The position numbers and the translations under genes were made by a program. From NCBI GenBank assembly GCA_030016755.1, contig JASEJC010000001.1, positions 4,883 through 68,882 on the forward strand: DNA of 64,000 nucleotides, read 5' to 3'. The notes below the pieces were generated by a model, which saw only the letters and a list, made by a program, of their open reading frames with translations, was not told the DNA's origin and did no database searches. This document shows positions 1,265 to 17,705 of the stretch, one piece after another. The DNA is from Candidatus Hodarchaeaceae archaeon (GTDB lineage: Archaea > Hadarchaeota > Hadarchaeia > Hadarchaeales > Hadarchaeaceae). The first letter of the stretch is position 1, and every line of letters begins with the position of its first letter.

Positions 1265-1288
1265 TTCCGCTGTTATTTACCTAATCGA

Positions 1289-1396: not shown

Positions 1397-1482
1397 ACCT
1401 GAAAATCATTGGGTGTGTAGCTTTAACTTTTCTTCTGGGGCAACCTATATGAAAACAGGGGACAATCAGGATTTGGGATAAC

Positions 1483-2658: not shown

Positions 2659-2706
2659 CCCTATTTTTAAGCCGCGGGGCGGATATTTTCTTAAGGAGTG
2701 GTATAC

Positions 2707-4896
2707 ATGCGACGCTACAAGCACCTAGCTGATGTCGAGAAAATTATGTGGATCCCAACACAAATTCGCAACATAGGCATCGTCGCGCACGTTGACCATG
2801 GGAAAACCACCTTAACGGATTCGCTGGTAGCCGCCTCGGGCATAATCAGCTACGACCTCGCGGGAGAGCAGCTCTTCACAGACTACCTCGAGATCGAGCA
2901 GCAGCGCGGCATTACCGTGCAGACGGCTGCTGTCAGCCTAGCGCACACCCTTGAGGGCAAGGAATACCTCATCAATCTACTCGACACCCCTGGCCACGTA
3001 GACTTCAGCGGTGACGTCACCCGGGCCCTGCGGGCGATTGACGGGGTGGTTGTTGTGGTTGACGCCGTCGAGGGAGTCATGCCCCAGACTGAGACGGTGC
3101 TACGTCAAGCTCTCCACGAACGAGCGCGCCCCGTGCTATTCATCAACAAGGTCGACCGCTTAATCGACGAACTCAAGCTGACGCCCGAGGGGATGCAGGC
3201 GCGCTTCATCAGGTTGATAACCAAGTTCAACCAGCTAATCAAGAGATACGCCCGCCCGGAAGATGCTGATAAATGGCAGGTGAAAGTTGAGGAAGGCTCG
3301 GTAGCGTTTGGGTCCGCAAAGGAGAAGTGGGCCCTTTCGGTTCCCCAGATGAAGAAGAAAAACATTAGCTTCAAAGACATCATCACCGCTTACCAGAGCG
3401 GCACCCAGGCCGAGCTGGCAAAGAAGAGCCCGCTTTTTGAGGTCGTCCTTGATATGGTCATTAGACACCTCCCCAACCCAAAACAGGCACAAGCAAGCCG
3501 GATGCCTGTGATATGGAAAGGCGACCTAGAGAGTGAACTCGGAAAAAGCATGGTTGCTGCCGACCCCAAAGGTAAGGTATGCATGGTGATCACAGACATC
3601 ATCGTTGACGAACAGGCTGGCGTGATCTCCACTGGGCGGATCTTCTCTGGTGTCCTAGAGAAGGGAAAAACTGTCAGGTTAGTTAGCGCCAATCAGGAGG
3701 CTCGCGTCCAGCAGGTTAGTGTCTACATGGGGCCCGACCGCGTTCCGGTTGAGAAAATCCCTGCTGGAAACATCGCCGCTATCATAGGGATGAAGGAGGC
3801 CTACGTGGGAGAGACCCTCATTGAGGCTGGCGTGGAAGGCAGGGGATTCGAAGAGCTCCGCTACATAAGCGAGCCCGTCGTCACGGTGGCCGTGGAGCCG
3901 AAGAACTTTCAAGAGTTACCCAAGCTCGTGAACGCGCTGAAGCGGATCTCTCGGGAGGACCCGAACATCAAGATCAAAATCAACGAAGAAACCGGGGAGT
4001 ATTTGGTATCCGGAATGGGGGAAGTCCATCTTGAAATCGTCGAATACAAGCTGAAGGAGGCGGGACTCGAGGTAAAAACTTCTGAACCCATCGTCGTCTA
4101 CCGTGAAGCCCTAACTGGAAAGGCCGGGCCGATCGAGGGCAAATCGCCGAACAAACACAACCGCTTCATGGTCGCGGTTGAACCATTGGAACCGGATGTC
4201 ATCAAGGCCATTGAGGAGGGCAAGGTCACTGACAAGCAGGAGCGGAAGGAGCGCGCGAATGTGCTCAGGGAACTCGGGTGGGAGACCCACGCAGCCCGCA
4301 ACATCGTCTCGATAATCGGCCCGAACATCATGACCGACGTGAGCAAGGGAGTGCAGTACATGCGGGAGGTGCAGGACTACGTCATCGAAGCATTCAAGGA
4401 GGTCGTCGAGGAGGGTCCCACCATGCGTGAGCCCATGCGCGGGTTGAAGGTGCTTATAGTTGACGCCACGCTGCACGAGGACTCGGTTCACCGGGGACCA
4501 GCACAGATTATACCTGCTGTCAGGCGCCCGATCCAGGCGGGGATCCTTCTCGCCAACCCAACCGTGCTCGAGCCCCTACTCAAACTTGAGGTGCGCGTGC
4601 CGCAGGAGTTCATGGGCGGCGCGACCAAGGTCATACAAGGCCGCCGGGGACGAATTCTAAGCATGGAGTCAGAGGAAGACATCGCGATAATAAAGGCCTC
4701 GCTCCCCGTGGCGAACTCTTTCGGGTTGGCTGCAGAGCTGCGTTCGGAAACCGAGGGACGGGCGATCTGGGGGACGGAGTTCGAGAAATTCGAGCAGCTG
4801 CCGCGGGAGCTTCAGGAACAGGTCATCCGGAACACGCGGAAGCGCAAGGGGCTGAAGCTGGAGCCGCCCAAGCCTGACGAGTTTATGGAGAAGTGA
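2707..4896 (+). CDS. fusA: Translation elongation factor 2 (aEF-2)
   Basis: GTPase motifs AHVDHGKTT, DTPGH and NKVDR, with the full five-domain length. AAGGAG lies about 10 nt upstream of ATG 2707 (the track ORF starts at GTG 2698). Confidence 0.97.
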   Translation: MRRYKHLADVEKIMWIPTQIRNIGIVAHVDHGKTTLTDSLVAASGIISYDLAGEQLFTDYLEIEQQRGITVQTAAVSLAHTLEGKEYLINLLDTPGHVDFSGDVTRALRAIDGVVVVVDAVEGVMPQTETVLRQALHERARPVLFINKVDRLIDELKLTPEGMQARFIRLITKFNQLIKRYARPEDADKWQVKVEEGSVAFGSAKEKWALSVPQMKKKNISFKDIITAYQSGTQAELAKKSPLFEVVLDMVIRHLPNPKQAQASRMPVIWKGDLESELGKSMVAADPKGKVCMVITDIIVDEQAGVISTGRIFSGVLEKGKTVRLVSANQEARVQQVSVYMGPDRVPVEKIPAGNIAAIIGMKEAYVGETLIEAGVEGRGFEELRYISEPVVTVAVEPKNFQELPKLVNALKRISREDPNIKIKINEETGEYLVSGMGEVHLEIVEYKLKEAGLEVKTSEPIVVYREALTGKAGPIEGKSPNKHNRFMVAVEPLEPDVIKAIEEGKVTDKQERKERANVLRELGWETHAARNIVSIIGPNIMTDVSKGVQYMREVQDYVIEAFKEVVEEGPTMREPMRGLKVLIVDATLHEDSVHRGPAQIIPAVRRPIQAGILLANPTVLEPLLKLEVRVPQEFMGGATKVIQGRRGRILSMESEEDIAIIKASLPVANSFGLAAELRSETEGRAIWGTEFEKFEQLPRELQEQVIRNTRKRKGLKLEPPKPDEFMEK

Positions 4897-5719
4897 GCAG
4901 GTTAGCTATCTCCCCAAATTTCTCCGGCACGAGGTCCATGACGCGGGCTTCAGCAAGCTCTTTAGGGAGCCTTTGATCTATTGTTGCTCGCCTATCCTCC
5001 TTCGATATTTTCACGCCAGGAAACACCTCCCCGAACGAGCGGTAAAGCGCATTTCGCACCCGCTGGCGCCGATGCTGGAAGAGCGCTCGAATAACCCTGA
5101 AAAAAACTTGCTCGTCTTTTACCTTGAATGGTGGCTCTCGCGGCCTGAGCCTGACCATCGCTGAGGTGACTTTTGGTTGGGGGAAAAATGCTGTTGACGG
5201 CACCTCATTGAGCAACTCGACGCTCGCCCGATAGTGCGTGCTCAGTGTCAGGCGGCCATACTCATCGGACCCTGGCTTCGCTGCGAGCCGCTCGGCGAAC
5301 TCCCGCTGGTACATCAATACGGCCAGCTCGAAACCGTGCTCTAGTAACCTGAACGTGATGTCTGAGGAGATGCCGTAGGGGAGGTTCGCGACGACTTTGT
5401 TAAACTTGGGAAGCTCTATGCGCAGCGCGTCCCCGCACAGTAGCTCGACGTTCGAGTGGCTTCTTAACCGTTCCTCTAGAACTTTTACGAGTCTCCTATC
5501 TCGCTCCACCGCGATGACCCTCCCGGCACGCGAGGCAAGCAAAAGCGTTAGATTGCCTATCCCTGCGCCAATCTCGAGCACCACGTCGCCACGCGAGAGC
5601 TCGGCGTAATCGACCATCCGCTCCAAAACAATGGGGTCGATGACTTGGTGCTGCCCTGCCCGCCTGCTGAGCCTTATTCCCTGCTTGCGCAAGAACCGCA
5701 ATGTTTCCTCAAACATCAA
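4883..5719 (-). CDS. rsmA: 16S rRNA (adenine1518/1519-N6)-dimethyltransferase (KsgA/Dim1)
   Basis: GQHQVIDP, SAM-binding motif VLEIGAGIGNLT, and NLPYGISS. Confidence 0.9.
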   Translation of the reverse strand: MMFEETLRFLRKQGIRLSRRAGQHQVIDPIVLERMVDYAELSRGDVVLEIGAGIGNLTLLLASRAGRVIAVERDRRLVKVLEERLRSHSNVELLCGDALRIELPKFNKVVANLPYGISSDITFRLLEHGFELAVLMYQREFAERLAAKPGSDEYGRLTLSTHYRASVELLNEVPSTAFFPQPKVTSAMVRLRPREPPFKVKDEQVFFRVIRALFQHRRQRVRNALYRSFGEVFPGVKISKEDRRATIDQRLPKELAEARVMDLVPEKFGEIANLLTSP

Positions 5720-5748
5720 TTCTAATACTCTTGGATGGACTATTTAGG

Positions 5749-6108
5749 ATGGGGACGGCAATGGTCTCGGAAACTTTCAAACGAGGGAAGGAGGCCCTGT
5801 TCAACCGGCTGCACAAGGGAGTGGTTCTGACGCCTGAGATAGAGCGAGAGATAATGGATGTCTATGGTGGACGGGGCAAGCGGGCTCTCGCGGCGATCAA
5901 AGGGCGCCGCGTGATAAAGCGCGGGCAGCGGTGGTTCGTGCGCGGCATGACGGATGAATATGAAGTTGTCAAAAATTTTTGCACCTGCAGGGACTATGTT
6001 CTCAATATCACCACAGGAAAAGTTGATGTCGACTGCTGTTACCATGCGCTCGCTAAAACCATCTGCGAGGCGCTCAACTCGTACTACGTGCTCCAGCCCG
6101 AGGGCTAA
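5749..6108 (+). CDS. SWIM zinc-finger domain protein
   Basis: CxC-x(n)-CxH signature: FCTCRDYVLNITTGKVDVDCCYHALAK. The start was moved to ATG 5749 to avoid overlapping the divergent rsmA start. Confidence 0.65.
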   Translation: MGTAMVSETFKRGKEALFNRLHKGVVLTPEIEREIMDVYGGRGKRALAAIKGRRVIKRGQRWFVRGMTDEYEVVKNFCTCRDYVLNITTGKVDVDCCYHALAKTICEALNSYYVLQPEG

Positions 6109-6757
6109 ATTTTGTGCGTTTTAGATGGCGAACTCCAATCGGGCATAGGTCGTTAATTGGGCATTCTTGGTGAAGAGGGTTCCGGGCGCGACAGTAGCGC
6201 CGACCAAGCTCGACCAAAAGCATGTGGGCATCGCGCCTTCTGCCCGCGGATGTGACGCTCTCCAGCTTTGCCTTAACCTGCTCATGATTGTCTTTGTGTG
6301 AAGCAAGCCCCAAGCGCTTTGAGATTCGGAATACGTGGGTGTCTACCGCTATCACATCCTTCCCCGCCCCAAACGCCATCACCACATCGGCGGTCTTGAA
6401 GCCAACCCCCGGAAGCGAGAGCAGTTCTCGACGCGCCTCTTCTACCGGTTTCTGTAGGACAGAGTTAAGGTTCCCACCATATTTTTCCAACACTGCACGC
6501 GAGATTTCCCTCAGCCGCTTGGACTTTTCCCTGTGCAAGCCAGCAGGGCGAATAAGCTCTCGGATCTCTCGCACATCAGCGTTGGCGAGCTGTGCGGGCG
6601 TTCGAAACCTAGAGGTGAGGCGGTTGTAGGCTGCACGGGTGTTGCGCCAGTTGGTGTTCTGGGAGAGTACAGTGCCGACGAGCAGCAAGAATGGGTCATC
6701 GGTGTAGCGACGCCAAGGCTCGAACTCAGCACCCAACCGGTTTAAAATCATGTCCAT
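6074..6757 (-). CDS. nth: Endonuclease III / HhH-GPD DNA glycosylase with a 4Fe-4S cluster loop
   Basis: LVGTVLSQNT, HhH element LPGVGFKTADVV, catalytic D in VDTHV, and C-terminal Cys cluster CRARNPLHQECPINDLC. The start was set at MDMILN (6757). Confidence 0.85.
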   Translation of the reverse strand: MDMILNRLGAEFEPWRRYTDDPFLLLVGTVLSQNTNWRNTRAAYNRLTSRFRTPAQLANADVREIRELIRPAGLHREKSKRLREISRAVLEKYGGNLNSVLQKPVEEARRELLSLPGVGFKTADVVMAFGAGKDVIAVDTHVFRISKRLGLASHKDNHEQVKAKLESVTSAGRRRDAHMLLVELGRRYCRARNPLHQECPINDLCPIGVRHLKRTKFSPRAGARSTS

Positions 6758-6809
6758 GCGGCGGGGGCCCGCTTGCCTATCCTTTAAATCTCCCGCCGCC
6801 CCAGCCTGA

Positions 6810-7214
6810 ATGGTGACCGATTTGAGCGCCATCGATGTCCTCTACCTAGTTCTCCTCATCGGCTCTTTGGCTTTTGGGCTCGAGGCGATGCTTCTCGGTT
6901 TGGGGGGCAAGCTCATGGTGCTCTATCGCCGGCGGAAAGCCAAGACGCTTGCGATTGCCCTCGCGGTGGGGCTTTCGATTGTGGGGCCAGCGGTGGTGAC
7001 TTCGGTGGTCTTCGCACTGGAGCCGCTCTATTTCTGTGTGCTGTTGCTCGCGTACATGTTCATCGCGGGCAAACTCATCAGCGTGTTTGGACCCGGGCGC
7101 GTTCGAACGCCCCCACCACCTTTGCCACCACGACCCTCCGAGAAAGAAATCGAGGCGATGGTCAGGAAGCGCGGGCTCGGCAAACTTGTGAGTAAAAAGA
7201 GGAAGCGCTATTGA
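6810..7214 (+). CDS. Small membrane protein with a Pro-rich and basic C-terminal tail; function unknown
   Basis: 134 aa with about three hydrophobic helices, followed by PPPPLPPRP and KKRKRY. Confidence 0.5.
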   Translation: MVTDLSAIDVLYLVLLIGSLAFGLEAMLLGLGGKLMVLYRRRKAKTLAIALAVGLSIVGPAVVTSVVFALEPLYFCVLLLAYMFIAGKLISVFGPGRVRTPPPPLPPRPSEKEIEAMVRKRGLGKLVSKKRKRY

Positions 7215-7515
7215 ACCGGGTAATAAGCATATTTCCAAATGTAGCATATGTTACCACGGAACTGAAGAGGTTAACCAAATATTACATTCAAGTTGCCAAG
7301 TCCATAAATCCCGACGCGAGCCCCGTGAAGAAACAGCTGAAGATAACACTCAACTATGAGATTATTCTACGATGACCCCAACTTTGTTTCGAGATTCAAG
7401 CTGGCCCTTCGTAGCAGCCCACTTTCCGCTTTGAATCCTCAATAATCCACTTGACCTGTTTTACGACTTCACCGGCGATAATTTCGTTTGACTGAAGCGC
7501 TTTAAAATTGACGCG

Positions 7516-8079
7516 TCAGGCTGAATATCGTTTGTCTAACTCTCCAACTAGTTCTCTCACAGGTTTGAACTCTTTCATATACCGAGCCAAATCCTTCTTC
7601 ACCGCACGCCATAGTTCGTCCAACTCGCGTGAACGGTTGCCTCGCTCGCGATATTTGACCGCCTGTACAAGCATCGAGAGATAGTCGGCTGCGTGGACGA
7701 GGTTGGCCTCGGGGGTGCGCTTCTCGCTGTACTCCTGCCAAAGCGCCAGATATTTTTCTCTTTTCGGCAGCTTACCAAAGAGATCCTCAAGTGCTCTTTT
7801 TTCGACGCGCTTCTTCGTGCCTGCGGGCCCCAAGTATTTCAAAGCCGTGTAGGGGAAGTCACCGACCGATGCCTCAGCCCAATCGTGCACGACCGCCATG
7901 CTGAGTGCTCGCCCCTGATCAATTTTCTTGCCCTGGCGCTCGAGTTCATCGGCAAGGAGTAAAGTTATTGCCGTAACATCGAATGTGTGTTGCGCCACAT
8001 CCTCGACCTCGCTGGACGAAACGTTGCAAAGCAGCCAACCCGTGCGGGGGATGCGCTTGAGGTTGTTGAGCCGCTCCAA
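7516..8079 (-). CDS. HD-domain phosphohydrolase (YfbR-like 5'-deoxynucleotidase family)
   Basis: RIPRTGW near the N-terminus, H...HD pattern (AQHTFDV, VVHDWAE), 187 aa. Confidence 0.8.
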   Translation of the reverse strand: MERLNNLKRIPRTGWLLCNVSSSEVEDVAQHTFDVTAITLLLADELERQGKKIDQGRALSMAVVHDWAEASVGDFPYTALKYLGPAGTKKRVEKRALEDLFGKLPKREKYLALWQEYSEKRTPEANLVHAADYLSMLVQAVKYRERGNRSRELDELWRAVKKDLARYMKEFKPVRELVGELDKRYSA

Positions 8080-8093
8080 AAATTCATTTAATT

Positions 8094-8498
8094 TCAGACG
8101 ACCACCAGCTTGGCCTGCTTGACCCCACGGAGGGCGCCCAACCGATCGACGAGCTTGCGGATCTTCTCAGCTGGACCCTTGACGATTAACGTCTCTAAGC
8201 AGTTTTTGGTGTCCACGTGTAAATGCTGGACTGCGCCTATGATACTCAAACTCGCGTGTTGGATATCCATGAGCGCATCAGTCAGTCCTCGAACATCGTG
8301 CTCATACATCACGAGGATGGCGCCAAGTTGTTCTCCCTTTAACTCGCTGCGCCACTTGTAACTCGCCAAGAAATCCCGAAGCGCGTCCCTCACCGCTTCT
8401 GAGCGGCTCGCGTAGCCCTGAGCTTTGAGCATGCGATCGAGCTCATCTAGCAAATCTTGGGGCAACGTCAAGCTCACCCGCGTTATCCTTTGCGACAT
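8094..8498 (-). CDS. nikR: Nickel-responsive regulator NikR (ribbon-helix-helix plus C-terminal metal-binding domain)
   Basis: RVSLTLPQDLLDELD...GYASRSEAVRDALR forms the RHH. The C-terminal domain contains HVHLD-like VQHLHVD. The start was set at MSQRITRVS (8498). Confidence 0.85.
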   Translation of the reverse strand: MSQRITRVSLTLPQDLLDELDRMLKAQGYASRSEAVRDALRDFLASYKWRSELKGEQLGAILVMYEHDVRGLTDALMDIQHASLSIIGAVQHLHVDTKNCLETLIVKGPAEKIRKLVDRLGALRGVKQAKLVVV

Positions 8499-8545
8499 GC
8501 TTCCCCATCCAAACTTACACACATTTCAGTATTTCAAGTTTCGTA

Positions 8546-8573
8546 GTAATATTTATAACTAGAAAAGTATTAC
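8546..8573. promoter_or_regulatory. Dyad GTAATA-N16-TATTAC in the nikR / 8591 divergent promoter (candidate NikR operator)
   Basis: Perfect 6-bp inverted repeat with exactly 16 nt between the half-sites. The spacer contains TTTATAA (TATA-like). The E. coli NikR site has the same geometry (GTATGA-N16-TCATAC). Confidence 0.55.
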
Positions 8574-8590
8574 CACTTACCAAGAAAAAA

Positions 8591-8914
8591 ATGTTAGGAG
8601 GCACAAAAGTGGTTTGCTATACGATACCCTTGGCGGCGGCGATAATTTCGACCATCCTGTGGAGCTCCCAACGAAGAGGTCCTGCAGGGTGGTGGCTCAA
8701 CCTGCTGCTCTACGGAGGTGCAATGTTCGGAGTGGTGGATCACCTTTGGAACGGCGAGCTGTTCCTCATCGGGGAAGCGCCGCTCATGGACTTGCTCCTT
8801 GGATTTACAATTACGGCCGTCATCTTCGGTGGGTGGGGAATTACTTTCGCCGTTGCCAGAGCGTACCCCAATCTTGGCTACCGCATGGGTTTTTTGGAGC
8901 AGAAAAGACGCTGA
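8591..8914 (+). CDS. Small integral membrane protein divergent from nikR; function unknown
   Basis: 107 aa with three hydrophobic segments. It shares the promoter region that carries the dyad. Confidence 0.5.
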   Translation: MLGGTKVVCYTIPLAAAIISTILWSSQRRGPAGWWLNLLLYGGAMFGVVDHLWNGELFLIGEAPLMDLLLGFTITAVIFGGWGITFAVARAYPNLGYRMGFLEQKRR

Positions 8915-8991
8915 GCCTGCGAGTTCAACCCAAGTCGCGAGCAAAAAAAAAGCATTTAATTAGGGGACTCCATCTTAACTCGGTGAGGTGA

Positions 8992-9261
8992 ATGGAGGAA
9001 GTTGCACCTGAAGAGAAGAAGCTCGTGGGAAAGGTGACCCACTACTTCACTAAGATAGGGGTGGGAGTCATCGAGCTTTCCGACGAGCTGAAGGTTGGCG
9101 ACCGGATCTCGATCGAGGGCGCGACGACAAACATCCAGCAAACCGTGGAGTCGATGGAGATTGAGCACAAAGCCGTGCAGAGCGCGAGCGCAGGGCAGTC
9201 GATTGGGCTCAAGGTCGTCCAGCGTGTGCGCGAGGGCGATCTCGTCTACAAGCTGGGCTGA
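8992..9261 (+). CDS. Small translation-elongation-factor-like protein (EF-Tu domain 2-like beta-barrel)
   Basis: 89 aa. GKVTHYFTKIGVGVIELSDELKVGDRISIEG...GQSIGLKV matches the small stand-alone EF-domain-2 family as I recall it. Confidence 0.7.
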   Translation: MEEVAPEEKKLVGKVTHYFTKIGVGVIELSDELKVGDRISIEGATTNIQQTVESMEIEHKAVQSASAGQSIGLKVVQRVREGDLVYKLG

Positions 9262-10091
9262 CGCCTTTTACCCTCTTTGAAAAGCTTTTCGAAGGTCCGA
9301 TCGGCGAGTTCCCTGAATGCCCTTGCCGCCCGAGATTTAGGGGAGTAGCGCACGACTGGGATGCCCGCCGTCAGACTTTCTCTAACTTTATCGTCGTCGG
9401 GTACCGTGGCGATAATCGGCCACCCAAGAGTCTTCCTGATCTCTGACAGGGGAACCTCGTAACGCTTGCCCATGATTTTGTTGACAACGACGCCTGTGAT
9501 CGGGATGCGGTACCGCTGGGCCGCACGGAAGGTCCGAAGGGTGCTAGCGATAGTCGGGATTTCAGGATTCGTCACAACCAGCATCTCGTCGCAAGCCTTT
9601 ATCGCAGCTACCGCCTCTGCACCAAGACCGGGCGCGGAGTCGATTATGATCAGCTTGTACTTTGACCTTGTCGGCTCTATAGCTCCTTTCAGATCAACTA
9701 GTGGGATACCCCCCTCATAAGCTACTGAACCAGGAACGGCGTGTAACTTGCCACCGACAACATTTGTAGCTCTTTCTATAGGTACTGCGCCCGCTAGGAC
9801 ATCGTGAATCGTCACCTTGGGGTCTATGATGCCGAGGTGTAGGCCGAGATTTGGTGCTGAGAGGTTTGCCTCAATTACTATTACCCCATTTCCAAGTCGC
9901 TCAGCCAAAAGCATGCCCAAGTTCGCTGCCGTTGTAGTCTTCCCCACGCCACCTTTACATGAAAATACGCCAACCACGCGCGCGCGCCGTGGTTTTATCT
10001 CGATCCTGCGCCCGCCACGCTTAAATCCGCGAAGCAGTTCTTTCATGCTAGAAAAGCGTTTTTTACGGGCGCTCGACAATCTACCAACCAT
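9246..10091 (-). CDS. MinD/ParA/Mrp-family P-loop ATPase
   Basis: Deviant Walker A motif SCKGGVGKTTTAANLG. 281 aa with a basic N-terminal extension. Confidence 0.85.
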   Translation of the reverse strand: MVGRLSSARKKRFSSMKELLRGFKRGGRRIEIKPRRARVVGVFSCKGGVGKTTTAANLGMLLAERLGNGVIVIEANLSAPNLGLHLGIIDPKVTIHDVLAGAVPIERATNVVGGKLHAVPGSVAYEGGIPLVDLKGAIEPTRSKYKLIIIDSAPGLGAEAVAAIKACDEMLVVTNPEIPTIASTLRTFRAAQRYRIPITGVVVNKIMGKRYEVPLSEIRKTLGWPIIATVPDDDKVRESLTAGIPVVRYSPKSRAARAFRELADRTFEKLFKEGKRRQPSL

Positions 10092-10109
10092 ACCAGTTGT
10101 GGCTGACCA

Positions 10110-10436
10110 TCATAAAAGTGTTGTAAACTCACCTGTCCTCGCTTGCTTAGCAGCTTCCTTACCCTTGTCCGTCAAAGTGTAAGCGGTCAACAACCCGCGC
10201 CTTGTCTCCCCGATCAAGCCTCGTTTCTTGAGAGATCCTAACAACACATCCATCCTGCTTGGGTTCACCGAGACCCCTTGACGAGCGAAAATCTCTTGGA
10301 TGATTTCGTGCTTGCTCATCGACGTGTGCCCATATAGAAAGCCTAAGACCAGAGTTTCTAGATTATCTGCCACAAATTTTGTGCTCTTCGCGACGTCTAT
10401 CTTGCGCACATTTTCAGTCGGGAATGGGGCCTTCAT
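10110..10436 (-). CDS. PadR-like winged-helix DNA-binding protein
   Basis: 108 aa. LVLGFLYGH..MSKHEIIQEI...LLGSLKKRGLI...YTLTDKGKE follows the wHTH pattern. Its ATG overlaps the stop of the upstream gene (ATGA). Confidence 0.6.
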   Translation of the reverse strand: MKAPFPTENVRKIDVAKSTKFVADNLETLVLGFLYGHTSMSKHEIIQEIFARQGVSVNPSRMDVLLGSLKKRGLIGETRRGLLTAYTLTDKGKEAAKQARTGEFTTLL

Positions 10437-11320
10437 TTTTCCCGCCCCATCTTGCGCTTTAGCCGCTTCAACAGCCTTACATCTTCCTTTGCGCCTTTTT
10501 GCACCTTTGGCTTGCTCGGCCGCTCAAGCGTCTCAATCGCGGGTTCTTCCGCGGGCCTGAGTTTTGTCGCATGTTTCAAACGTCTGATGGTTGGGGCCAT
10601 CTCGGGTCCCCTAACCTCCGCGCCTCTGGGTTTTCTCCCCATTACCCTGCGCTTGAGCCAAGCCAGCGAGACAAATGGTTTCATCGGGCGGGTTGAGAAC
10701 CAGTAAAATGCTGAAACCCCACCTGCAACAGCGACGATCGACAGCACCGCATACAGGCCCAGCGGCGCGGGAACCCCAGCCGACTGCCCCGCCACTGCAA
10801 ATACTGAAAACCCGGGACTAGTGGCCTCGTAGTAGAGGTAGAAATCGCTAGTTTGGATCAAAGTTGTTGGTAGCTCCTGCCACGCACCGTTCAACCTCAG
10901 CAGCGTGATAGAATTTTCGTCAATGCGATTTTGCTCGGCCCAGTCTCTTAGCACCCTGAACTGAATTACCGCGTTCTCGATGTCTTCGCTCGCTTCGAGA
11001 GAGAAGTAGGTCTGCACAAGTAAGGAAGGCTCTGCGACTCCTGCTGGTTTCTCAAGCTGCTCAACTACGATATCCACTTTCTTGACGTTTTCCCCAAGCC
11101 AAAGCGTTATCCGGGTGATTGTTGGATGCCCGACCAGCACGATGCTGTGCGTGTTGGCTAGGTTGTCTTCCGCAGCGCCTTGGATTGTCATAAGATTTCC
11201 TAGTGAAGCGAGAGAGATGGGGGCAAAAGCAATCGCCGCCAGAAGGCCCACAATAAGACACCCTAAAACTTGCCCCGCCCAGTAACCTCTACCCCGTGCC
11301 TTTGCCAGGGGTCCGCTCAA
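10433..11320 (-). CDS. Membrane protein with a PGF-pre-PGF-like extracellular domain and a Lys/Arg-rich cytoplasmic tail
   Basis: N-terminal TM, then a domain ending ...YYEATSPGFSVFAVAG, a second TM, and a tail rich in K/R. The domain name is from recollection of TIGR04213-type proteins. Confidence 0.6.
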   Translation of the reverse strand: MSGPLAKARGRGYWAGQVLGCLIVGLLAAIAFAPISLASLGNLMTIQGAAEDNLANTHSIVLVGHPTITRITLWLGENVKKVDIVVEQLEKPAGVAEPSLLVQTYFSLEASEDIENAVIQFRVLRDWAEQNRIDENSITLLRLNGAWQELPTTLIQTSDFYLYYEATSPGFSVFAVAGQSAGVPAPLGLYAVLSIVAVAGGVSAFYWFSTRPMKPFVSLAWLKRRVMGRKPRGAEVRGPEMAPTIRRLKHATKLRPAEEPAIETLERPSKPKVQKGAKEDVRLLKRLKRKMGREK

Positions 11321-11433
11321 GCACTTCCCTCGTTTAACCCTTTTTTGGCCGGGCTTTTATCGGCTTTTAAAAGGTGAAAATCTTTCAAATTTTTTCGAAA
11401 CATTTATTAATCCTCGAATGGGCCCCAATATTG

Positions 11434-12072
11434 ATGAAGAAAGGCGAACGGGTTCTGCGCGAGATCCTATACCGCTTTCACGAGCGCAATGAGCGGTTCA
11501 TGAGCCAAAAGGCGCTGGCGGAGGCTTGCGGACTTTCCCTTGGCACGGTCAACCCAATCGTGCGCAGGCTAGAACAGCTTGGCGCCATCGAGAAGAAACC
11601 CCTAGGATTTAGGGTCAGCGATGTGACGCGCATCCTGCTGTACTGGGCCAGCAAGAGGAACTTGGCTAAGGATATAGTCTATAGCACCAGCACTTCCCTC
11701 TCAGCAGCAAATATTGAGAAGGACCTGCCCCAAGGCTCGGTTATGACTGCCTATTCTGGTTTCAATGCTAGATTTGGTGAAGTGCCGATAGACTATCAAG
11801 AAGTTTATGTGTATGCAGACCCGGCTGAGCTGAAGCGAAGGTTCCCCCGCGCGCGAGGCCGTTTGAATAACCTCATCGTGCTGAAGCCAGATGAACACCT
11901 CATTCGACTCAGCGAGGGAGGTATTGCCCCCCTAGCCCAGATTTACGTTGACCTGTGGCAACTTGGTGATCCGGCAAAAAAACTCGTCGATGAACTCGGC
12001 GCGCGGATGCGGGCAGGGGAGATAGGTGCGCTTCAGGGGATTATTAAAAGGACCCGGGAGCGGCCCGGATAA
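11434..12072 (+). CDS. Winged-helix transcriptional regulator with an uncharacterised C-terminal domain
   Basis: MSQKALAEACGLSLGTVNPIVRRLEQLGAIEKK forms the wHTH. The start was set at ATG 11434 (MKKGERV). Confidence 0.6.
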   Translation: MKKGERVLREILYRFHERNERFMSQKALAEACGLSLGTVNPIVRRLEQLGAIEKKPLGFRVSDVTRILLYWASKRNLAKDIVYSTSTSLSAANIEKDLPQGSVMTAYSGFNARFGEVPIDYQEVYVYADPAELKRRFPRARGRLNNLIVLKPDEHLIRLSEGGIAPLAQIYVDLWQLGDPAKKLVDELGARMRAGEIGALQGIIKRTRERPG

Positions 12073-12940
12073 TCGACTTCTCAAGCTTTAGGAGCAGAGC
12101 CTTTGCGCCCTCCAAGTTTGCCGTTTTACCCCTACACCGCGAACACGCTGCTGCTGCACGCTCGATATCTTTGCGGAAGCTCTCGTATGGTTTTGCCGCC
12201 TCAATTATCCTGTTCACAAGTGCCCGGATTTGCTTTGCCGGCACTTCAAATGTGCCACAGAAGGGGCACCCTGCCAACTCCTCAACGGCGCTGACCCTCA
12301 TTAAGGCCCGGTCTGGTCCCGATGGGTGCCGCTTCTTGACCAGGCGAACCGCATCCTCTGGGCAAACCTCCTCACAGCTGGCGCAACTGATGCACTTATC
12401 GTACATGAATTTCACCGTTCGCTTGTTGCCCTCGTCCGCCAGCTCTATCGCGGATGTTGGGCATGCCTTTTCACATGCGCCGCAGCCCGTACACTTCTCT
12501 GAATCAAGCTCGGGCTGCCCCCTGAAACCCTTGGGGGCCAGCCAGCGTCTGTACTTGACACCCATGGTCCGAGCTACCCCCTCCCCTATCGCCTGGGGAC
12601 TGGGTGGGCAACCAAGGACATACAAATTAACCGGGATGAACTTGTCCGTTGGTTCAAGAGCACTGTACGATTTCTGGAAAATCCCGCTTGATAGAGCACA
12701 CGTACCAACTGCAATCACGGTTTTGGGTTCCCTGAGCTTGTTGTAAACTTCCTTGAGGGGTCCCGCCATTTTTGCGCTGACGACTCCAACAACGAGGAGC
12801 ATATTCGCTTTCTCGGGCTCGTCCACTATTCTCGCTTTGAGATTTCCAATACCGAACCTCTCAGCCAGTGCACACACTACCTCGATGTCGCAGCCATTGC
12901 AGGAGCCAACGTTCAGGCGGTAAACTCCTATCTCGCTCAC
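12044..12940 (-). CDS. [NiFe]-hydrogenase small subunit (NuoB/MbhJ/EchC-like) fused to a 2x[4Fe-4S] ferredoxin domain and a CxxC-x37-CxxC tail
   Basis: GSCNGCDIEV, GTCALSSG and GCPPSP are the NuoB-type cluster ligands. CTGCGACEKACP and CISCASCEEVCP follow, then CPFC...CSRC. GTG start at 12940. Confidence 0.85.
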   Translation of the reverse strand: MSEIGVYRLNVGSCNGCDIEVVCALAERFGIGNLKARIVDEPEKANMLLVVGVVSAKMAGPLKEVYNKLREPKTVIAVGTCALSSGIFQKSYSALEPTDKFIPVNLYVLGCPPSPQAIGEGVARTMGVKYRRWLAPKGFRGQPELDSEKCTGCGACEKACPTSAIELADEGNKRTVKFMYDKCISCASCEEVCPEDAVRLVKKRHPSGPDRALMRVSAVEELAGCPFCGTFEVPAKQIRALVNRIIEAAKPYESFRKDIERAAAACSRCRGKTANLEGAKALLLKLEKSIIRAAPGSF

Positions 12941-12951
12941 CTCAACCCGTC

Positions 12952-14277
12952 CTAAATTCCCGTACTAAACTGTACAGGCAATTTTTCTGGCTCCATCCCC
13001 AGCTTCGCTTGGGCTACAAGCCCATCCACTGGGGACTGCATCTGCCAGCAGTCGGCGGGGACGTGCCTCGCCCCATCCTTAGCTATGTTCCAGCTCGCCA
13101 CCAAGTGACGGCTGGCCTCGAACCCGCAAGCTTTGCACCTGTAGGTGTGCCCATTCGGCCTGTTGTACCGGCCACATATCGGGCAGTCCTTCGACTTGTG
13201 GTAGTTGCTGACCTCCACCGTTGGCAGTCCTTGTCGCGCCACCTTGTACTCGGCATAGAACTGGAACTTTCGGAAAGGCCACTGGTTGAGCCTCCTGCGC
13301 ATGTCCTTCCGCAGGGCCCTGCCGTTCTTCGACTTGCGCTTCGAGCGCATGAAACCACGAATTCCCTTGATACCCCCGAAGGTGACCGCGACTCGCTCTC
13401 GCTCGGCAATCTTGGCGATCTGTTTGCTGACAACGTGTAGGATCTGGTTAGTGCGGTTGCGCTCCCTTCGCCAGTACTTCGCCTTGAGCCTGCGCTTCTG
13501 CACCGGTCGCTGCGGTGGCGTATCCAGCTTTCGCTGAATCGATTTGCGCTTGAGCTGTGACGAGTGCCTTATCGCGGGGAGCTTTGAGACATCGAGACTG
13601 ATGTGTTTTGGCTGTTCGTTTGGCTTCAGGATGGTCAAATCAACGCTCTGCTCGTTGATGTCTATGCCGCAGATGCCCTCCGTTGGCCTCGGTTCCACCT
13701 CGCACTTGAACGGCACAAAAACATTGGCTCGATCTTTGAATAGCGAGATCGTGATTTCCCCGACTTTCTTTTTACCTTCCCGCCAGTCGCGGAGGTATCG
13801 GAGTACGTGGTGCTCGGTCACCACGAGCGGAAGCCAAAGGTACTCCCCGCGACGGATTCTGATTTGAATCACATTTCCGCAGAACCTGCAAACGCCAGTT
13901 TGGTTTCTATCGCCCCAGAGTTCTAGGCGCATTGTCCGCGCTTTGTAGGCGGGTGGCTTCTCCGGGTTCGCCTGTCCTTGGCGACAGAGCTTCCGCCACG
14001 AGCGGAGCGTCTGCGTAGCCATCTGCCCGGCCGAGTGGAACCAGTGCGTCGCTAGATCAAAGCGCGACTTCCACTCCTCGTAGGCGACGTGATGTAGCGA
14101 GGCGCGGGAAGTAACCTTATGTTCGAGGCACTTCTGGATGTAGAAGTTAACCGACTCCGCGAACTTGCCGAGGAGATCGCCCAGCAGCTCGCGCTTTCGC
14201 CCAGTCAGCGGAGGTGTAATGAATCTAGCGGAGCTGACGGACTGCACATCTTCTACCTCCGATGCGTTTTCTACCAT
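12952..14277 (-). CDS. TnpB-like (IS200/IS605 OrfB family) protein with apparently degenerate RuvC motifs II and III
   Basis: GICGIDINE (RuvC-I), zinc ribbon CPICG...CKACG and C-terminal WNIA are present. The expected IVxEDL reads VAVTFGGI, and the expected RDxNAAxNI reads RHLVASWNI. The track ORF extends to GTG 14412. ATG 14277 (MVENAS) lies about 45 nt downstream of a TATA-like box. Confidence 0.85.
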   Translation of the reverse strand: MVENASEVEDVQSVSSARFITPPLTGRKRELLGDLLGKFAESVNFYIQKCLEHKVTSRASLHHVAYEEWKSRFDLATHWFHSAGQMATQTLRSWRKLCRQGQANPEKPPAYKARTMRLELWGDRNQTGVCRFCGNVIQIRIRRGEYLWLPLVVTEHHVLRYLRDWREGKKKVGEITISLFKDRANVFVPFKCEVEPRPTEGICGIDINEQSVDLTILKPNEQPKHISLDVSKLPAIRHSSQLKRKSIQRKLDTPPQRPVQKRRLKAKYWRRERNRTNQILHVVSKQIAKIAERERVAVTFGGIKGIRGFMRSKRKSKNGRALRKDMRRRLNQWPFRKFQFYAEYKVARQGLPTVEVSNYHKSKDCPICGRYNRPNGHTYRCKACGFEASRHLVASWNIAKDGARHVPADCWQMQSPVDGLVAQAKLGMEPEKLPVQFSTGI

Positions 14278-14320
14278 TTTCTGCCCAAGCCACTTTGGGG
14301 GAGGGGGGTCTCCGAAAGTA

Positions 14321-14338
14321 ATATATAAACTATTTAAA
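14321..14338 (-). promoter_or_regulatory. TATA-like box (minus strand CCTTTAAATAGTTTATATAT) upstream of the TnpB-like ORF
   Basis: AT-rich box in an otherwise GC-rich spacer, about 45 nt upstream of ATG 14277. Confidence 0.4.
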
Positions 14339-14449
14339 GGGCTCCCAGGCACGACCTGATTGTCTTCTAGAGCCCATTTTTGGTGCCTTTTTTCGCCATT
14401 TTTCAGGGGCACCGAAAGTATTCCCCGAATGATACGGTCTGGTACGGTT

Positions 14450-15595
14450 TTATGTAGCAGCTACAACACCCCTCAGCTCATCTAAAGTGACCCGCCTGCT
14501 CCTTCCCGTCCGCTCGTCCACGACAGTGACGCGATTCGTACAGGAGATGCAACGGTCCAGGCTCTCCAAAATCACTGGGAAGTCGGCTAGTTTTTGTTCG
14601 CGGAGCATCTCCACGACGGCTCGATCGTTCATGTAAGTAGGTGGCCTGAGCTTAACCCGTTCTGGATAATTTGTTCCGTTCGACCTCACATAATAAATAA
14701 GCTCGCCTCGCGGTGCCTCCACTCTGCTGAAGTCCTCCCCAACCAGCGGCTCCCTAATATCCACGCTAATTTCACCTTTAGGCATGCGCTCGATTAGCTG
14801 TCGGATAATTTTCACGCTTTCCAAAGTCTCCCTCGCCCGAACCAAAGCCCTTGAAAAAACATCGCCCTCCTCTTCCGTGGGGATTTCGAAATCCACTTCC
14901 CCATAGGCGGCATACGGGTCGTCTTTCCGTATATCGCTTTCAACACCTGATGCTCTGAGCACGGGGCCCACTACACCGTATGCCCTTGCTTTACCCCTAG
15001 GTAGGGGACCGAGCCCCGAAAGCGTGGGCGCTGCATTCCTAAGCTCTCTTGAAATGTCATCAGTGAGGGTTTCGAGGTCACCCATCAGAGACTTCACTGC
15101 TGCCAACATCCTCTTGGTCACGTCGCGCCTGACCCCACCTATCGAATTTATCGAAAAGTGCACCCGGTTGCCGCAGATGGACTCGATTAAATCCATCAAG
15201 CTCTCACGAGCGTTGATGATTTTAATGAACTGACCTTCGTTGTGTAGTGTATGAAAAAACAACCCAAACCACATGTAATGACTGTGCAAACGATCCATCT
15301 CAAAAACTAGTGACCTGATATTTCTCGCCCGCGCCGGAACTTCCGCGCCGAAAATCTTTTCCACCGCTTGGCAATATGCCGTGGAGTGGGCTTGGGAGCA
15401 CAACCCGCATACGCGCTCAGCCAGGAAAACATTTTGAACAAATGACTTCGATTCCATCAGGCGCTCAATCCCACGATGCGTATAGCCTTGCCTAATTTCC
15501 ACATCAGTAATTTTGCCATCGCGCACAGTAATCTCGTATAACTCTGGCTCCAGCAACAAGGGGTGATATGGCCCTACCTTTACCACATCGAACAT
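14450..15595 (-). CDS. [NiFe]-hydrogenase large subunit, group-4-like (EchE/MbhL/NuoD fold)
   Basis: N-terminal Ni-binding pair RVCGLCSQAH and C-terminal pair DRCISCTNR are both present. VGPYHPLLLEP and GYTHRGIE are family motifs. Confidence 0.9.
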   Translation of the reverse strand: MFDVVKVGPYHPLLLEPELYEITVRDGKITDVEIRQGYTHRGIERLMESKSFVQNVFLAERVCGLCSQAHSTAYCQAVEKIFGAEVPARARNIRSLVFEMDRLHSHYMWFGLFFHTLHNEGQFIKIINARESLMDLIESICGNRVHFSINSIGGVRRDVTKRMLAAVKSLMGDLETLTDDISRELRNAAPTLSGLGPLPRGKARAYGVVGPVLRASGVESDIRKDDPYAAYGEVDFEIPTEEEGDVFSRALVRARETLESVKIIRQLIERMPKGEISVDIREPLVGEDFSRVEAPRGELIYYVRSNGTNYPERVKLRPPTYMNDRAVVEMLREQKLADFPVILESLDRCISCTNRVTVVDERTGRSRRVTLDELRGVVAAT

Positions 15596-16462
15596 TTACC
15601 CAATCCTCGCAGCCAGTTGGGAGACTGGGCTTCGATGAAACTCTAACGACAGCTCCTTTGCAGGTACACTAAAGGCGAGGGCTAGAAGCTCAGCTAAGTG
15701 TAGACATGGGACCGAAAACTTTTCGCCGTATCTTCTGAGGTCAAGCTGCCCTGATTCAAACTGAACGTTGCATGCGGGACACACCACCGTGACGCCATCG
15801 ACCCCCACGTGTTGATAGCACTTCAGCTTAGGGAGGAGGTTGTGCTTCAGCGAAAACTCTTTATCTACTTGGGATGTCGGAAAACCGCAACACATCTGAT
15901 CTAAATCACAGCGGATGACCTCAGCCCCCGTCGCGCGCACTAGCTCCTCGAACTGCCTTGGCTTCCTCCAGATGTCTCCACCGTCTTCCTCCCTGAAGAG
16001 GTGACAACCGTAGTGTACCGCTAGCTTCAGGTTAAGCGGTTTCTTGACCCGCTCCTTTATCGCTTCGACTCCGACATCCTCATGGAGAACCTCTACAATG
16101 TGCCTGACCTTTATTGTCCCCCCGTACTTCCTCCCCACCTTGGTCAAGAGCTCATTGATCTCGCCGGCAGTTTCCTCCTGTTTCATGGCTTCGTTGGCCT
16201 CCCACAGTGTCTCAAAACAGCCGTTGCACAGCACCACAACATCGAGGCCCTGTTTCTCCGCTATGCTCAAGTTCCTAGCCGATAGGGAGAGCGCGACCTT
16301 CCTATCCATCAGGCGTGCCAAGATTGGGTCCGGGCAACATGTGTAGCCCGACATGTCCGCGATCTCGAGCCCAAGCGAACTGAAAACTTTGCGTGTGGCC
16401 AGTTCAGCGCTGGGGAGCCGCTGGGGTATCAAACAACCCAAGAAAAGAGCATATTTTTTCAC
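15596..16462 (-). CDS. HdrB-like protein with two CCG domains (heterodisulfide-reductase subunit B family)
   Basis: YALFLGC...YTCCPDP and ...QMCCGFP...CPAC are the CCG-type Cys motifs. The probable GTG start at 16462 overlaps the NuoC-like stop (GTGA). Confidence 0.8.
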   Translation of the reverse strand: MKKYALFLGCLIPQRLPSAELATRKVFSSLGLEIADMSGYTCCPDPILARLMDRKVALSLSARNLSIAEKQGLDVVVLCNGCFETLWEANEAMKQEETAGEINELLTKVGRKYGGTIKVRHIVEVLHEDVGVEAIKERVKKPLNLKLAVHYGCHLFREEDGGDIWRKPRQFEELVRATGAEVIRCDLDQMCCGFPTSQVDKEFSLKHNLLPKLKCYQHVGVDGVTVVCPACNVQFESGQLDLRRYGEKFSVPCLHLAELLALAFSVPAKELSLEFHRSPVSQLAARIG

Positions 16463-17130
16463 TTTTTCGTCCCCCTCAATTTCTTCCGCTCCCAATCGTA
16501 GCCGACCCGCTCGCTGAAACTCGTCTGCTTGATTAGCTCGTGAACCTCTTTCAGCTGGGGCTCGCTCGAGTAACTTGCGGGGGGTTGGGGAGGTAGCCCC
16601 GCCTCCACGCGCCTGCGCTCAACCAAGGGAGTTATGGGCGCAGTGGCACCGACGGTTGTAATAGCCTCAGCTACGGGGGTGATTTCATCTGGCACTGGGG
16701 GCTTGAAGGGCTTGCCCAGCGGGAAACTGCCCTCCGGCCACTCGTCTTGTAACACCAAATGCCTCGGCTCGGGATGGTCCCTGAATTTCGCCCCGCAAAG
16801 CTCGGCTGCCTCCTTCTCCGCCCATTCCGCCGCCGGAGTCAGGCCGACTATGCTATCGATTTCAGGGTTCTCCTTCGCCAACCTTGTTTTCAGCACCACG
16901 ACCCTACCCGTTAAATCGAAGTGGTAAAGCAACTCGATATCCAACCCCACATCGATGGCTGCGATGATTATGAACCGTGCCCCCCCACCAAGCAGGCTCT
17001 CGGTGGCCTTTCTTATCGCCCCAGGTGTTATCTCCGCCCAAACCTTGCGTTCTCGAGGCGTGGACGCGTTCAGAAGTTCGTCCCCGAGGTTTTCCTTCAG
17101 GAGTTTAACTATTGCGTTTTCCTCCACCAT
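16459..17130 (-). CDS. NuoC/MbhK/EchD-like 30-kDa hydrogenase subunit
   Basis: LLYHFDL...PAAEWAEKEAAELCGAKFRDHPEPRHL. The start was set at MVEENAIV (17130), after AAAGGAGGTG, overlapping the upstream stop (TAATG). Confidence 0.85.
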   Translation of the reverse strand: MVEENAIVKLLKENLGDELLNASTPRERKVWAEITPGAIRKATESLLGGGARFIIIAAIDVGLDIELLYHFDLTGRVVVLKTRLAKENPEIDSIVGLTPAAEWAEKEAAELCGAKFRDHPEPRHLVLQDEWPEGSFPLGKPFKPPVPDEITPVAEAITTVGATAPITPLVERRRVEAGLPPQPPASYSSEPQLKEVHELIKQTSFSERVGYDWERKKLRGTKK

Positions 17131-17705
17131 TACACCTCCTTTAGATATCGACTTCGCATGAACTCTGACGCTTCGGCGCGGGTGCCAACCCTGATCGCTT
17201 GAGGGGAGCAGTACTTGGCGCACTGAGGGTCGCCGTCGCAGAAGTTACACTTGGTTGCGACGCGGTGCTCCTCGTCGAACCATGCTGCGGCAAGGGGGCA
17301 GGCGTAGATGCAGGAGCGGCAACCGGTGCACTTCATCGGGTTTATTGCCACCCATCCCGTGCGCTCGTCCCTAGTAATTGCGTCCTCCGGGCAGGCGGCA
17401 ACGCACACCGGGTTCTCGCAGTGTAAACAGTTGTTCGCTTCACGCACAAACTTCTGATCGTCGATGAAAACATGAATATGGGATTTCTCCGGGTTGAGGG
17501 TGCCGAAGTTTCTGTGGGCGCACGCGATCTCACAATACCGGCAACCCGTGCACCGTTCCGCATCGTAGATAAGCACGAGCTGCTCCTCCTTAGACTTCTC
17601 CAAGAGGGTCGCCTCTTTTGCCGAAAGGGGGCTGATGCGCTTAAGGCTTTCGTTTCTTGCCACCCAAGCTGCGTTCGAAAATTTCCTCGCCCGGTTTCCA
17701 CCCAA
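17130..17705 (-). CDS. Poly-ferredoxin of the HycB/DmsB type (four Cys clusters)
   Basis: CTGCRYCEIAC, CLHCENPVCVAACP, CTGCRSCIYACP and CNFCDGDPQCAKYC. The start is uncertain because the ORF overlaps the 3' end of the upstream gene by about 65 nt. Confidence 0.8.
   Translation of the reverse strand: MGGNRARKFSNAAWVARNESLKRISPLSAKEATLLEKSKEEQLVLIYDAERCTGCRYCEIACAHRNFGTLNPEKSHIHVFIDDQKFVREANNCLHCENPVCVAACPEDAITRDERTGWVAINPMKCTGCRSCIYACPLAAAWFDEEHRVATKCNFCDGDPQCAKYCSPQAIRVGTRAEASEFMRSRYLKEV

Follow-up and report, generated by a model that had tools for sequence, protein, structure and literature searches.

We analysed a 64,000-nt stretch of a Candidatus Hodarchaeaceae archaeon contig (the window), in which a cassette on the minus strand (12044-17705) encodes a polyferredoxin, a NuoC-like subunit, a homologue of HdrB, a [NiFe] hydrogenase large subunit of group 4 type and a small subunit fused to a ferredoxin domain, with no gene for a membrane subunit. 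We propose, with slightly better than even confidence, that the five gene products form a cytoplasmic, non-ion-translocating H2:disulfide oxidoreductase in which the group-4-type hydrogenase is coupled to HdrB. The cassette recurs in a family of 18 loci (12 complete cassettes and six truncated contigs consistent with it). Gene contexts were obtained from exact look-ups and a metagenome scan (80 loci), which were annotated by phmmer with the window proteins and membrane-subunit sequences as references; domains of the window proteins were assigned with Pfam and NCBIfam, and solved relatives were sought with phmmer in the PDB.

Six open reading frames (ORFs) were found on the minus strand in the order given by a sequence-only reading of the same DNA: polyferredoxin, NuoC-like, HdrB-like, large subunit, TnpB and fused small subunit. 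All are present, although the starts first read for the polyferredoxin, NuoC-like and hdrB genes lay too far upstream. The HycB/DmsB-like polyferredoxin (17130..17603, 157 aa; ORF open to 17705) probably starts at TTG 17603, as in the gene calls of L092/L093, from a 98.5%-identical metagenome-assembled genome (MAG); a start at 17705 is disfavoured because it would overlap the neighbouring IF-2B gene. The NuoC-like gene (16459..17130, 223 aa; Complex1_30kDa 4e-18) starts at ATG 17130 in place of 17223. For the gene of the HdrB homologue (15596..16464, 289 aa; ORF open to TTG 16495), the probable start is GTG 16464, which shares bases with the stop codon of the NuoC-like gene (GTGA); the gene stands directly upstream of the large-subunit gene (14450..15595, 381 aa) with adjacent stop and start codons. 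The corrected starts thus give the stop/start overlaps typical for a coupled operon. An IS200/IS605-type element with a TnpB gene (12941..14449) separates the large-subunit gene from that of the NuoB/HycG-like small subunit, which is fused to a HycF/NuoI-like 2x[4Fe-4S] domain (12044..12940, 298 aa). All five hydrogenase-cassette ORFs are full length and keep every cofactor ligand. The flanking genes are also as first read: an IF-2B family gene on the polyferredoxin side, with ribose-1,5-bisphosphate isomerase (TIGR00511) as its best match, and a winged-helix regulator in opposite orientation on the other.

The large subunit (Complex1_49kDa 1e-62, NiFeSe_Hases 2e-14) carries the L1 motif RVCGLCSQAH (C63, C66) and the L2 motif DRCISCTNR (C349, C352). 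Its best solved relatives are E. coli HycE (1.9e-64) and P. furiosus MbhL (3.9e-63); in alignment with them, both CxxC pairs fall on the Ni-binding pairs, and both are invariant across the family alignment. The protein continues for 26 aa beyond CTNR ('VTVVDERTG...'), and this junction, CTNR/VTVVDERTG, resembles the CTDR/MTVVDVRKK of HycE, whose extension is cut off by the HycI protease. Judged by these motifs, the large subunit is a genuine group-4-type [NiFe] hydrogenase, in agreement with the sequence-only reading. Two other assignments were tried and rejected: an Ehr or complex I-like relic, given the two CxxC pairs and the protease-type C-terminal extension, and group 3c, given that the large and small subunits are of NuoD and NuoB type. 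The L2 motif (residues 347-355) differs between the two family subclades, reading DRCISCTNR in the Hadarchaeales-type and the canonical DPCF[AS]CTDR in the Bathyarchaeia-type, so that the Pro-to-Arg and Asp-to-Asn changes beside the Ni ligands are clade-specific.

In the small subunit, residues 1-~125 are NuoB/HycG-like (Oxidored_q6 4e-21, plus Fer4; MbhJ 2e-26 and HycG 2.8e-24 in the PDB) and contain the four Cys of a single proximal [4Fe-4S] cluster (14, 17, 81, 111). Residues 136-277 match HycF (PRK12387) and HyfH, with the Cys for two clusters in 150-160 and 183-193, and the C-terminal part holds a CxxC...CxxC segment (Cys 225, 228, 266, 269). The fusion to the HycF-like domain is found in every family locus that reaches the small-subunit gene. 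The polyferredoxin, the first gene of the cassette in 12 of 12 complete loci, matches Pfam Fer4_11 (2e-16), with PadI, HybA and DmsB as its top NCBIfam families; its 16 Cys fall into four CxxCxxCxxxC-type groups, a pattern implying four [4Fe-4S] clusters.

The product of the third gene contains two Pfam CCG domains (1e-24), each with a complete Cx31-37CCx35CxxC motif: C21, C53, C54, C90 and C93 in one, and C164, C202, C203, C239 and C242 in the other. The two CCG motifs noticed at first reading are thus intact five-Cys sets. The protein matches the HdrB chains of the PDB over its full length (4e-71 to 3e-57, ~45% identity) and the HdrB model TIGR03288 at 3.7e-82, with a score of 275.8 bits that lies below the 345.15 cut-off; by this similarity it belongs to the HdrB family. 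In HdrABC, HdrB's non-cubane clusters are the site of heterodisulfide reduction, and E87 and H154 are proton-path residues of the M. maripaludis protein. The homologue has Glu within CNGCFxxLxE and His within HYGCH, and these match E87 and H154 within about one residue, in approximate numbering from a hand alignment to a different chain (8rvu_b).

A link between HdrB and the hydrogenase may lie in the NuoC-like subunit, which is ~70 residues longer than ordinary NuoC/MbhK. Residues 1-~145 have the NuoC fold, while residues ~146-223 are homologous to HdrC 106-184. Positions 85-143 of the HdrC model TIGR03290 match residues 181-239 of the long NuoC-like ORF, phmmer matched the subunit to three solved HdrC chains in the PDB (8e-5 to 1e-4), and a profile of ten family sequences matched residues 106-183 of 5ODC chain C with E = 5e-11. 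The tail and HdrC have the motifs 'R..aGL...P' and 'L.E....ik...Fde.vGfDW.k..L' in common, and the tail is conserved within the family as GLPxxPP...G[FY]DWxxKKLR. The 2x[4Fe-4S] ferredoxin domain of HdrC is absent from the subunit, which has no cluster-binding Cys. In an AlphaFold2 (AF2) model of the monomer, the pLDDT (predicted local distance difference test) is 80-94 in the NuoC domain and <65 in the tail; the tail is thus not predicted to fold alone, which would weakly fit an arm that is ordered only on its partner. Among membrane-bound relatives, L071 and L095 operon 2 have the same element fused to NuoC, and in L047 and L095 operon 1 a gene next to hdrB encodes it as a separate protein of ~95 aa. 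Since it is found either fused or free beside hdrB, it accompanies HdrB whatever the rest of the complex, and the HdrC-like arm on the NuoC-like subunit probably docks HdrB. The databases label tailed NuoC proteins 'NADH-quinone oxidoreductase subunit C', and the tail element, fused or free-standing, offers a usable sequence marker for HdrB-docking hydrogenases.

No transmembrane (TM) helix was found in the five cassette proteins from mean Kyte-Doolittle hydropathy over 19-residue stretches: the maximum was <=1.55 in four of them, and the highest value, 1.68, lay in the conserved NuoC-fold core. A six-frame phmmer search of the whole 64 kb with queries taken from related loci returned no homologue of NuoH, NuoL/Mrp antiporters, NuoK/NuoJ-like proteins, HypA/C/D/F or HycI. 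Neither a NuoH nor an antiporter gene is present in any of the 18 family cassettes, and the sole genes of this sort close to a cassette are those of a separate Mbh operon in L004. By comparison, a NuoH-like gene stands beside the hydrogenase genes in 62 of 68 non-family loci, and five of the six others are contigs that end there. The proposed lack of membrane subunits therefore holds for the window and the related cassettes. The family small subunit is also ~10 residues shorter at the N-terminus, without the 'KWARxKSPW' segment of membrane-bound relatives, a weak sign of the membrane-less state.

The five-gene order, without TnpB, is the same in the 18 loci, which come from Hadarchaeales- and Bathyarchaeia-type contigs; as these loci are independent, the cassette is not a chance arrangement, and a check proposed with the sequence-only reading, the co-occurrence of this order in related genomes, thus gave a positive result. 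When flanking ORFs were compared all-against-all, only the five cassette genes were common to the loci, and the cassette is therefore a self-contained unit. Relatives of the large subunit form >120 clusters at 90% identity, the best 120 all being at least 49% identical; the named sources are Bathyarchaeia, Hadarchaeales and one Hodarchaeaceae MAG. A search of genome contigs with the large subunit returned solely distant Hydrogenothermaceae NuoCD-type loci at 30% identity. Large-subunit trees were built by neighbour joining (NJ) with the metagenomic relatives as taxa. The family is monophyletic (bootstrap 93/100) and comprises two subclades (100/100 each), one of Hadarchaeales type, to which the window belongs, and one of Bathyarchaeia type. 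With a wider taxon set, support was 72 for the family alone and 91 for the family plus a divergent sister, L096/P0121. Bit scores show a similar step, from 464 for the family's own 50% cluster representative to 345 for the next 50%-identity cluster. The family adjoins HdrB-linked membrane-bound clades with a support of 14-26%; the deep nodes have 4-43% support and single out no direct membrane-bound ancestor.

Gene content forms a graded series, from HdrB-linked operons with antiporter and NuoH genes (L047, L071, L095 operon 1), through one with NuoH only (L095 operon 2, in the order polyferredoxin, NuoC-tail, HdrB, large subunit, NuoH, ferredoxin, small subunit), to the family with neither. 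The two L095 operons (1-12098, Bathyarchaeota GCA_018396415.1) are divergent and stand back to back; the antiporter-bearing one also has a NuoC::large-subunit fusion, and the second has NuoH without an antiporter.

The TnpB element is ~1.5 kb long, shares the strand of the large- and small-subunit genes and fills exactly the space that separates them. Its ORF (12952-14412; NF040570 3e-29, Cas12f1-like_TNB 1.5e-13) likely starts at ATG 14277. The element is absent from all 17 other family loci with both flanking genes, where the gap ranges from a short overlap to <=46 nt, and it is not part of the hydrogenase. In two assemblies of a 98.5%-identical strain, contigs end 32 nt and 6 nt inside the element, which is probably repeated or polymorphic because the assemblies of near-identical strains break within it. 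The TnpB stop codon lies 11 nt from the small-subunit start, and that start codon and the 11 nt upstream of it are intact; an omega-RNA guide, if any, would overlap the small-subunit gene because of this short distance. No inverted repeats of at least 12 nt and no Rfam match were found in the element, and a TATA-like box is present near 14335-14318.

We base the proposed reaction on the analogy with the soluble arm of formate hydrogenlyase (FHL) and on the known role of HdrB in HdrABC. From the subunit set we infer how the complex would assemble and how electrons would pass through it, as well as the direction of the reaction, its substrate and its cytoplasmic location, 'soluble' being the best reading of the gene content. 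The large subunit would cleave H2 at its Ni-Fe site, and electrons would reach first the proximal [4Fe-4S] cluster in the NuoB-like domain, next the two clusters of the fused HycF-like domain and then the four clusters of the polyferredoxin, which would replace the missing HdrC ferredoxin domain as wiring. In all, seven cubane clusters would thus link the Ni-Fe site to HdrB, which is probably kept in place on the hydrogenase by the HdrC-like arm of the NuoC-like subunit. The direction from H2 to disulfide would follow from the standard potentials (E0' ~-414 mV for H+/H2 and ~-140 mV for CoM-S-S-CoB). As to the substrate, CoM-S-S-CoB may serve in alkane- or methane-metabolising hosts, and a novel thiol disulfide, persulfide or polysulfide in the many non-methanogenic ones. 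CoM-S-S-CoB is possible for part of the family because some Hadarchaeales and Bathyarchaeia carry alkyl-CoM reductases (PMC11057702). The enzyme probably originated from a membrane-bound HdrB-linked group 4 hydrogenase of the Ehd/Ehe/Drh type, which would have lost its NuoH-like and antiporter subunits and had its small subunit fused to a HycF-like ferredoxin.

Several points weigh against this proposal, and some of them favour an enzyme that is still membrane-bound and energy-converting, docking NuoH/Mrp-type subunits from elsewhere or a resident Mbh/Mrp complex. Such an enzyme would drive ion translocation by H2:disulfide electron transfer, a coupling proposed for Ehd/Ehe, and antiporter subunits are part of Ehd, Ehe and Ehg, the closest relatives so far described. 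To our knowledge, every characterised group 4 hydrogenase is membrane-bound. In energetic terms, a soluble enzyme would let the ~50 kJ/mol from heterodisulfide reduction with H2 go to waste, an odd trait in archaea that are limited in energy. In L004, a separate, complete Mbh operon lies directly upstream, 1.4 kb from the cassette, and a cassette free of membrane genes is therefore no proof of solubility; that operon, however, encodes large, small, NuoC and ferredoxin subunits of its own. The sister lineage L096 (3-4156) keeps the same core, with a 230-aa NuoC-like protein, HdrB, a large subunit and the fused small subunit, yet an MbhD-like gene (3 TM) and more small membrane genes follow directly downstream until the contig ends; no HdrC tail is detectable on its NuoC-like protein, and its large subunit ends at CTDR without an extension. 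On the other side stand the lack of a membrane gene in any of the family cassettes and of any conserved flanking gene, when relatives nearly always have NuoH beside their hydrogenase genes, together with the missing N-terminal segment of the small subunit and the lack of a detectable membrane partner in the window. On balance we consider a membrane-bound enzyme unlikely.

Other points concern the substrate. The TIGR03288 score below the equivalog cut-off means that the NCBI criterion lends no support to a specificity for CoM-S-S-CoB; no conserved flanking gene among the family loci indicates a substrate; and the function is read from genes throughout this family. A soluble, ferredoxin-linked hydrogenase, H2-evolving or bidirectional, would fit the low score, with an HdrB-like subunit that acts on a non-disulfide substrate or has only an electron-transfer or structural role. 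CCG proteins vary in substrate (SdhE/TfrB, LutA/LldE and GlpC-type), and NCBIfam also matches SdhE (1.6e-38), LdhH and TfrB; most hosts (Bathyarchaeia, Hadarchaeales) are not known methanogens, and a HycB-like polyferredoxin is the typical entry for a ferredoxin or dehydrogenase partner. Genuine HdrB is nevertheless far more similar to the subunit than any other CCG protein is, the two five-Cys motifs are kept along with the aligned Glu and His of the proton path, and the HdrC-specific docking arm is retained, so that we rate this alternative as rather improbable. Another point against the main proposal is the low confidence of the arm in the AF2 monomer, which makes its fold and role putative. 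The TnpB insertion raises the further question of whether the operon is undergoing inactivation in this genome, as a decaying remnant in which TnpB uncouples small-subunit expression. The 1.5-kb insertion is peculiar to this lineage among the 18 loci, its seemingly repeated or polymorphic nature is marked by assembly breaks, and it may lower or abolish small-subunit expression here. We hold inactivation to be very unlikely, given the full-length ORFs with all their cofactor ligands, the orientation of TnpB, which would permit read-through transcription, the intact small-subunit start with its 11 upstream nt, and a 99%-identical large subunit in the strain with 98.5% DNA identity. Finally, H2 oxidation might drive exergonic disulfide reduction at HdrB together with endergonic ferredoxin reduction via the polyferredoxin in a flavin-free electron-bifurcating hydrogenase, which would perform the overall chemistry of MvhAGD-HdrABC without HdrA/FAD, with bifurcation at a metal site. 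This would explain the keeping of a soluble, seemingly ~50 kJ/mol-wasting enzyme in energy-limited Bathyarchaeia/Hadarchaeales, and we regard it as a long shot. A non-bifurcating reaction is expected because HdrA, MvhD and the HdrC ferredoxin domain are missing and the hydrogenase belongs to group 4.

Group 4 [NiFe] hydrogenases are regarded as membrane-bound, ion-translocating ancestors of complex I. If the proposed H2:disulfide oxidoreductase is real, a widespread clade that lacks the membrane arm and has its Ni-Fe site intact would clearly depart from this rule, and would lend itself as a natural model of a 'peripheral arm only'. With just five subunits it would further be a compact system, in which H2 is wired directly to HdrB's disulfide chemistry with no bifurcating HdrA, and it raises the question of which disulfide or persulfide abundant non-methanogenic sediment archaea reduce with H2.

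Some neighbourhoods of the hydrogenase genes deserve mention in their own right. In the window, a NikR gene (8094-8522, minus strand) and an HD-domain gene (7516-8079, minus strand) lie 3.5 kb downstream of the hydrogenase; the pair is syntenic with L008, where a ZIP metal transporter gene directly follows the small-subunit gene, and these neighbours may have to do with how the hydrogenase is supplied with nickel or regulated. In L006 (4611-6941, 14349-21128), the cassette is flanked on one side by TusA, a sulfur-transport protein, DsrE, DsrE and DsrH and on the other by GcvH and two HdrA-like/FlpD pairs, with hypFCD nearby. These neighbours suggest persulfide or lipoyl-protein chemistry; among the family loci, L006 alone has TusA/DsrE/DsrH, GcvH and HdrA/FlpD close to its cassette. 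Another kind of membrane-less group 4 cluster was seen in L010 (7263-10025), where neither HdrB nor a membrane gene is encoded within 8 kb. It encodes a 158-aa protein of no known kind, an 87-aa NuoC, a 372-aa large subunit (44% identical to that of the window) and a 235-aa fused small-subunit/ferredoxin protein, along with a HypA-like gene.

The window as a whole is a segment of an archaeal chromosome, with genes for EF-2, A-type ATPase subunits, SecDF, an archaeal-type S-adenosylmethionine synthetase and a TGT-family tRNA-guanine transglycosylase; over 6.5 kb it has 98.5% DNA identity to a contig of the 'Hadesarchaea archaeon' MAG GCA_030018345.1. A single ORF of 2118 aa (30101-36457, minus strand), partly in a low-GC stretch (43-47% versus ~56% elsewhere) and next to another low-GC gene, suggests a giant surface protein that was acquired recently. 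The sole Rfam match in the window is a 90-nt tRNA (50813-50902, minus strand), whose length may allow an intron or a long variable arm.

Among known systems, the cassette has the typical features of group 4 enzymes, namely both Ni-binding CxxC pairs, a NuoB-like small subunit and NuoC- and HycF-like partners, and lacks their NuoH-like and NuoL/Mrp antiporter-like membrane subunits. The soluble arm of E. coli FHL (Hyc, group 4a; 7Z0S) consists of HycB, HycF, HycG and HycE with its NuoC domain. The cassette mirrors this arm, with HdrB in the place of FdhF: the large subunit has HycE as its top solved match, the small subunit has HycG as its next best after MbhJ, the HycF-like and NuoC domains match, and a HycB-type polyferredoxin is present. 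FHL, in contrast, is anchored by HycC/HycD and receives its electrons from FdhF, whereas the cassette has no membrane arm. With MvhAGD-HdrABC (group 3c; 5ODC) the proposed enzyme would share the linking of H2 oxidation to HdrB's non-cubane clusters, and the two have in common a full-length HdrB and the C-terminal arm of HdrC. They differ in that HdrA, and with it the bifurcating FAD, is missing from the cassette, as are MvhD and the ferredoxin domain of HdrC, and in that the hydrogenase of the cassette is of the NuoD/NuoB type of group 4 rather than 3c.

The sequence-only reading had treated group 3c Mvh as the normal partner of HdrB. This premise is outdated: 'HdrB-interacting' group 4 hydrogenases have been published as Ehd, Ehe, Ehg and Drh, all membrane-bound or membrane-associated (PMC9723716), and L047, L071 and L095 combine this core with NuoH and, in part, an antiporter. 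Ehd is found in Methanomethylicia and, as far as it is described in a later paper, has EhdD/'hdrC', EhdE/hdrB and EhdF/large subunit together with an antiporter subunit (Borrel 2019 via PMC9723716); Ehe is known from Culexarchaeia and Ehg from Nezhaarchaeia (Kohtz 2022, PMC9723716). As in Ehd and Ehe, the large-subunit gene of the cassette directly follows hdrB, which is preceded there by a gene annotated 'hdrC' and here by that of the NuoC-like subunit, with only the C-terminal ~78 residues of HdrC; the core of NuoC with HdrC tail, HdrB and large subunit would thus be alike. The Ehd/Ehe-resembling loci L071, L047 and L095 also share the HdrC-tail element and the HycB-like ferredoxin; the window large subunit is 41-45% identical to theirs, these loci being equated with Ehd/Ehe by gene order alone. 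Ehd and Ehe differ in having an antiporter subunit and being membrane-bound, and L071, L047 and L095 have NuoH as well, whereas the window family has no membrane subunit and a small subunit fused to a HycF-like ferredoxin. Ehe further includes SdhA, CdhA, GcvH and HdrA2B2C2. A published 'Ehd-like' group includes Bathyarchaeia sequences (PMC9723716); these are more likely of the L071-like membrane-bound type than of the window family, because the nearest named relatives of L071 are Nezhaarchaeales and Bathyarchaeia.

Another described design is Drh, the 'disulfide-reducing hydrogenase' of Methanocella, which in the accounts given by later papers is a group 4-type cluster with hdrB and no antiporter, proposed to reduce heterodisulfide directly with H2 and no ion pumping (Lyu & Lu 2015 via PMC6046458, PMC9723716). 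Its eight genes are given there as drhB, H, hdrB, C, E, D, F and G, and the enzyme as 'putative membrane-associated' (PMC6046458, PMC9723716). From the Hyc-style names, drhD would probably encode a NuoH/HycD-like anchor and drhF and drhG separate proteins, the arrangement seen in L095 operon 2. Compared by this description, the window family shares with Drh the group 4-type cluster with hdrB and without an antiporter subunit, and differs in having no NuoH-like gene and in the fusion of its F and G equivalents. The full-text literature, of which coverage was incomplete, yielded no account of the membrane-less five-gene form, and on soluble or cytosolic HdrB-linked group 4 enzymes of Bathyarchaeia or Hadarchaeales nothing beyond Kohtz 2022 and its citing papers. 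The sequence-only proposal of a soluble HdrB-wired hydrogenase thus stands as regards a membrane-less architecture that is real and conserved, the solubility itself being read from gene content, and becomes a variant of a known HdrB-linked kind. The pairing of HdrB with group 4 is already known; what is new is the consistent membrane-less, doubly fused form, with an HdrC tail on NuoC and HycF joined to NuoB.

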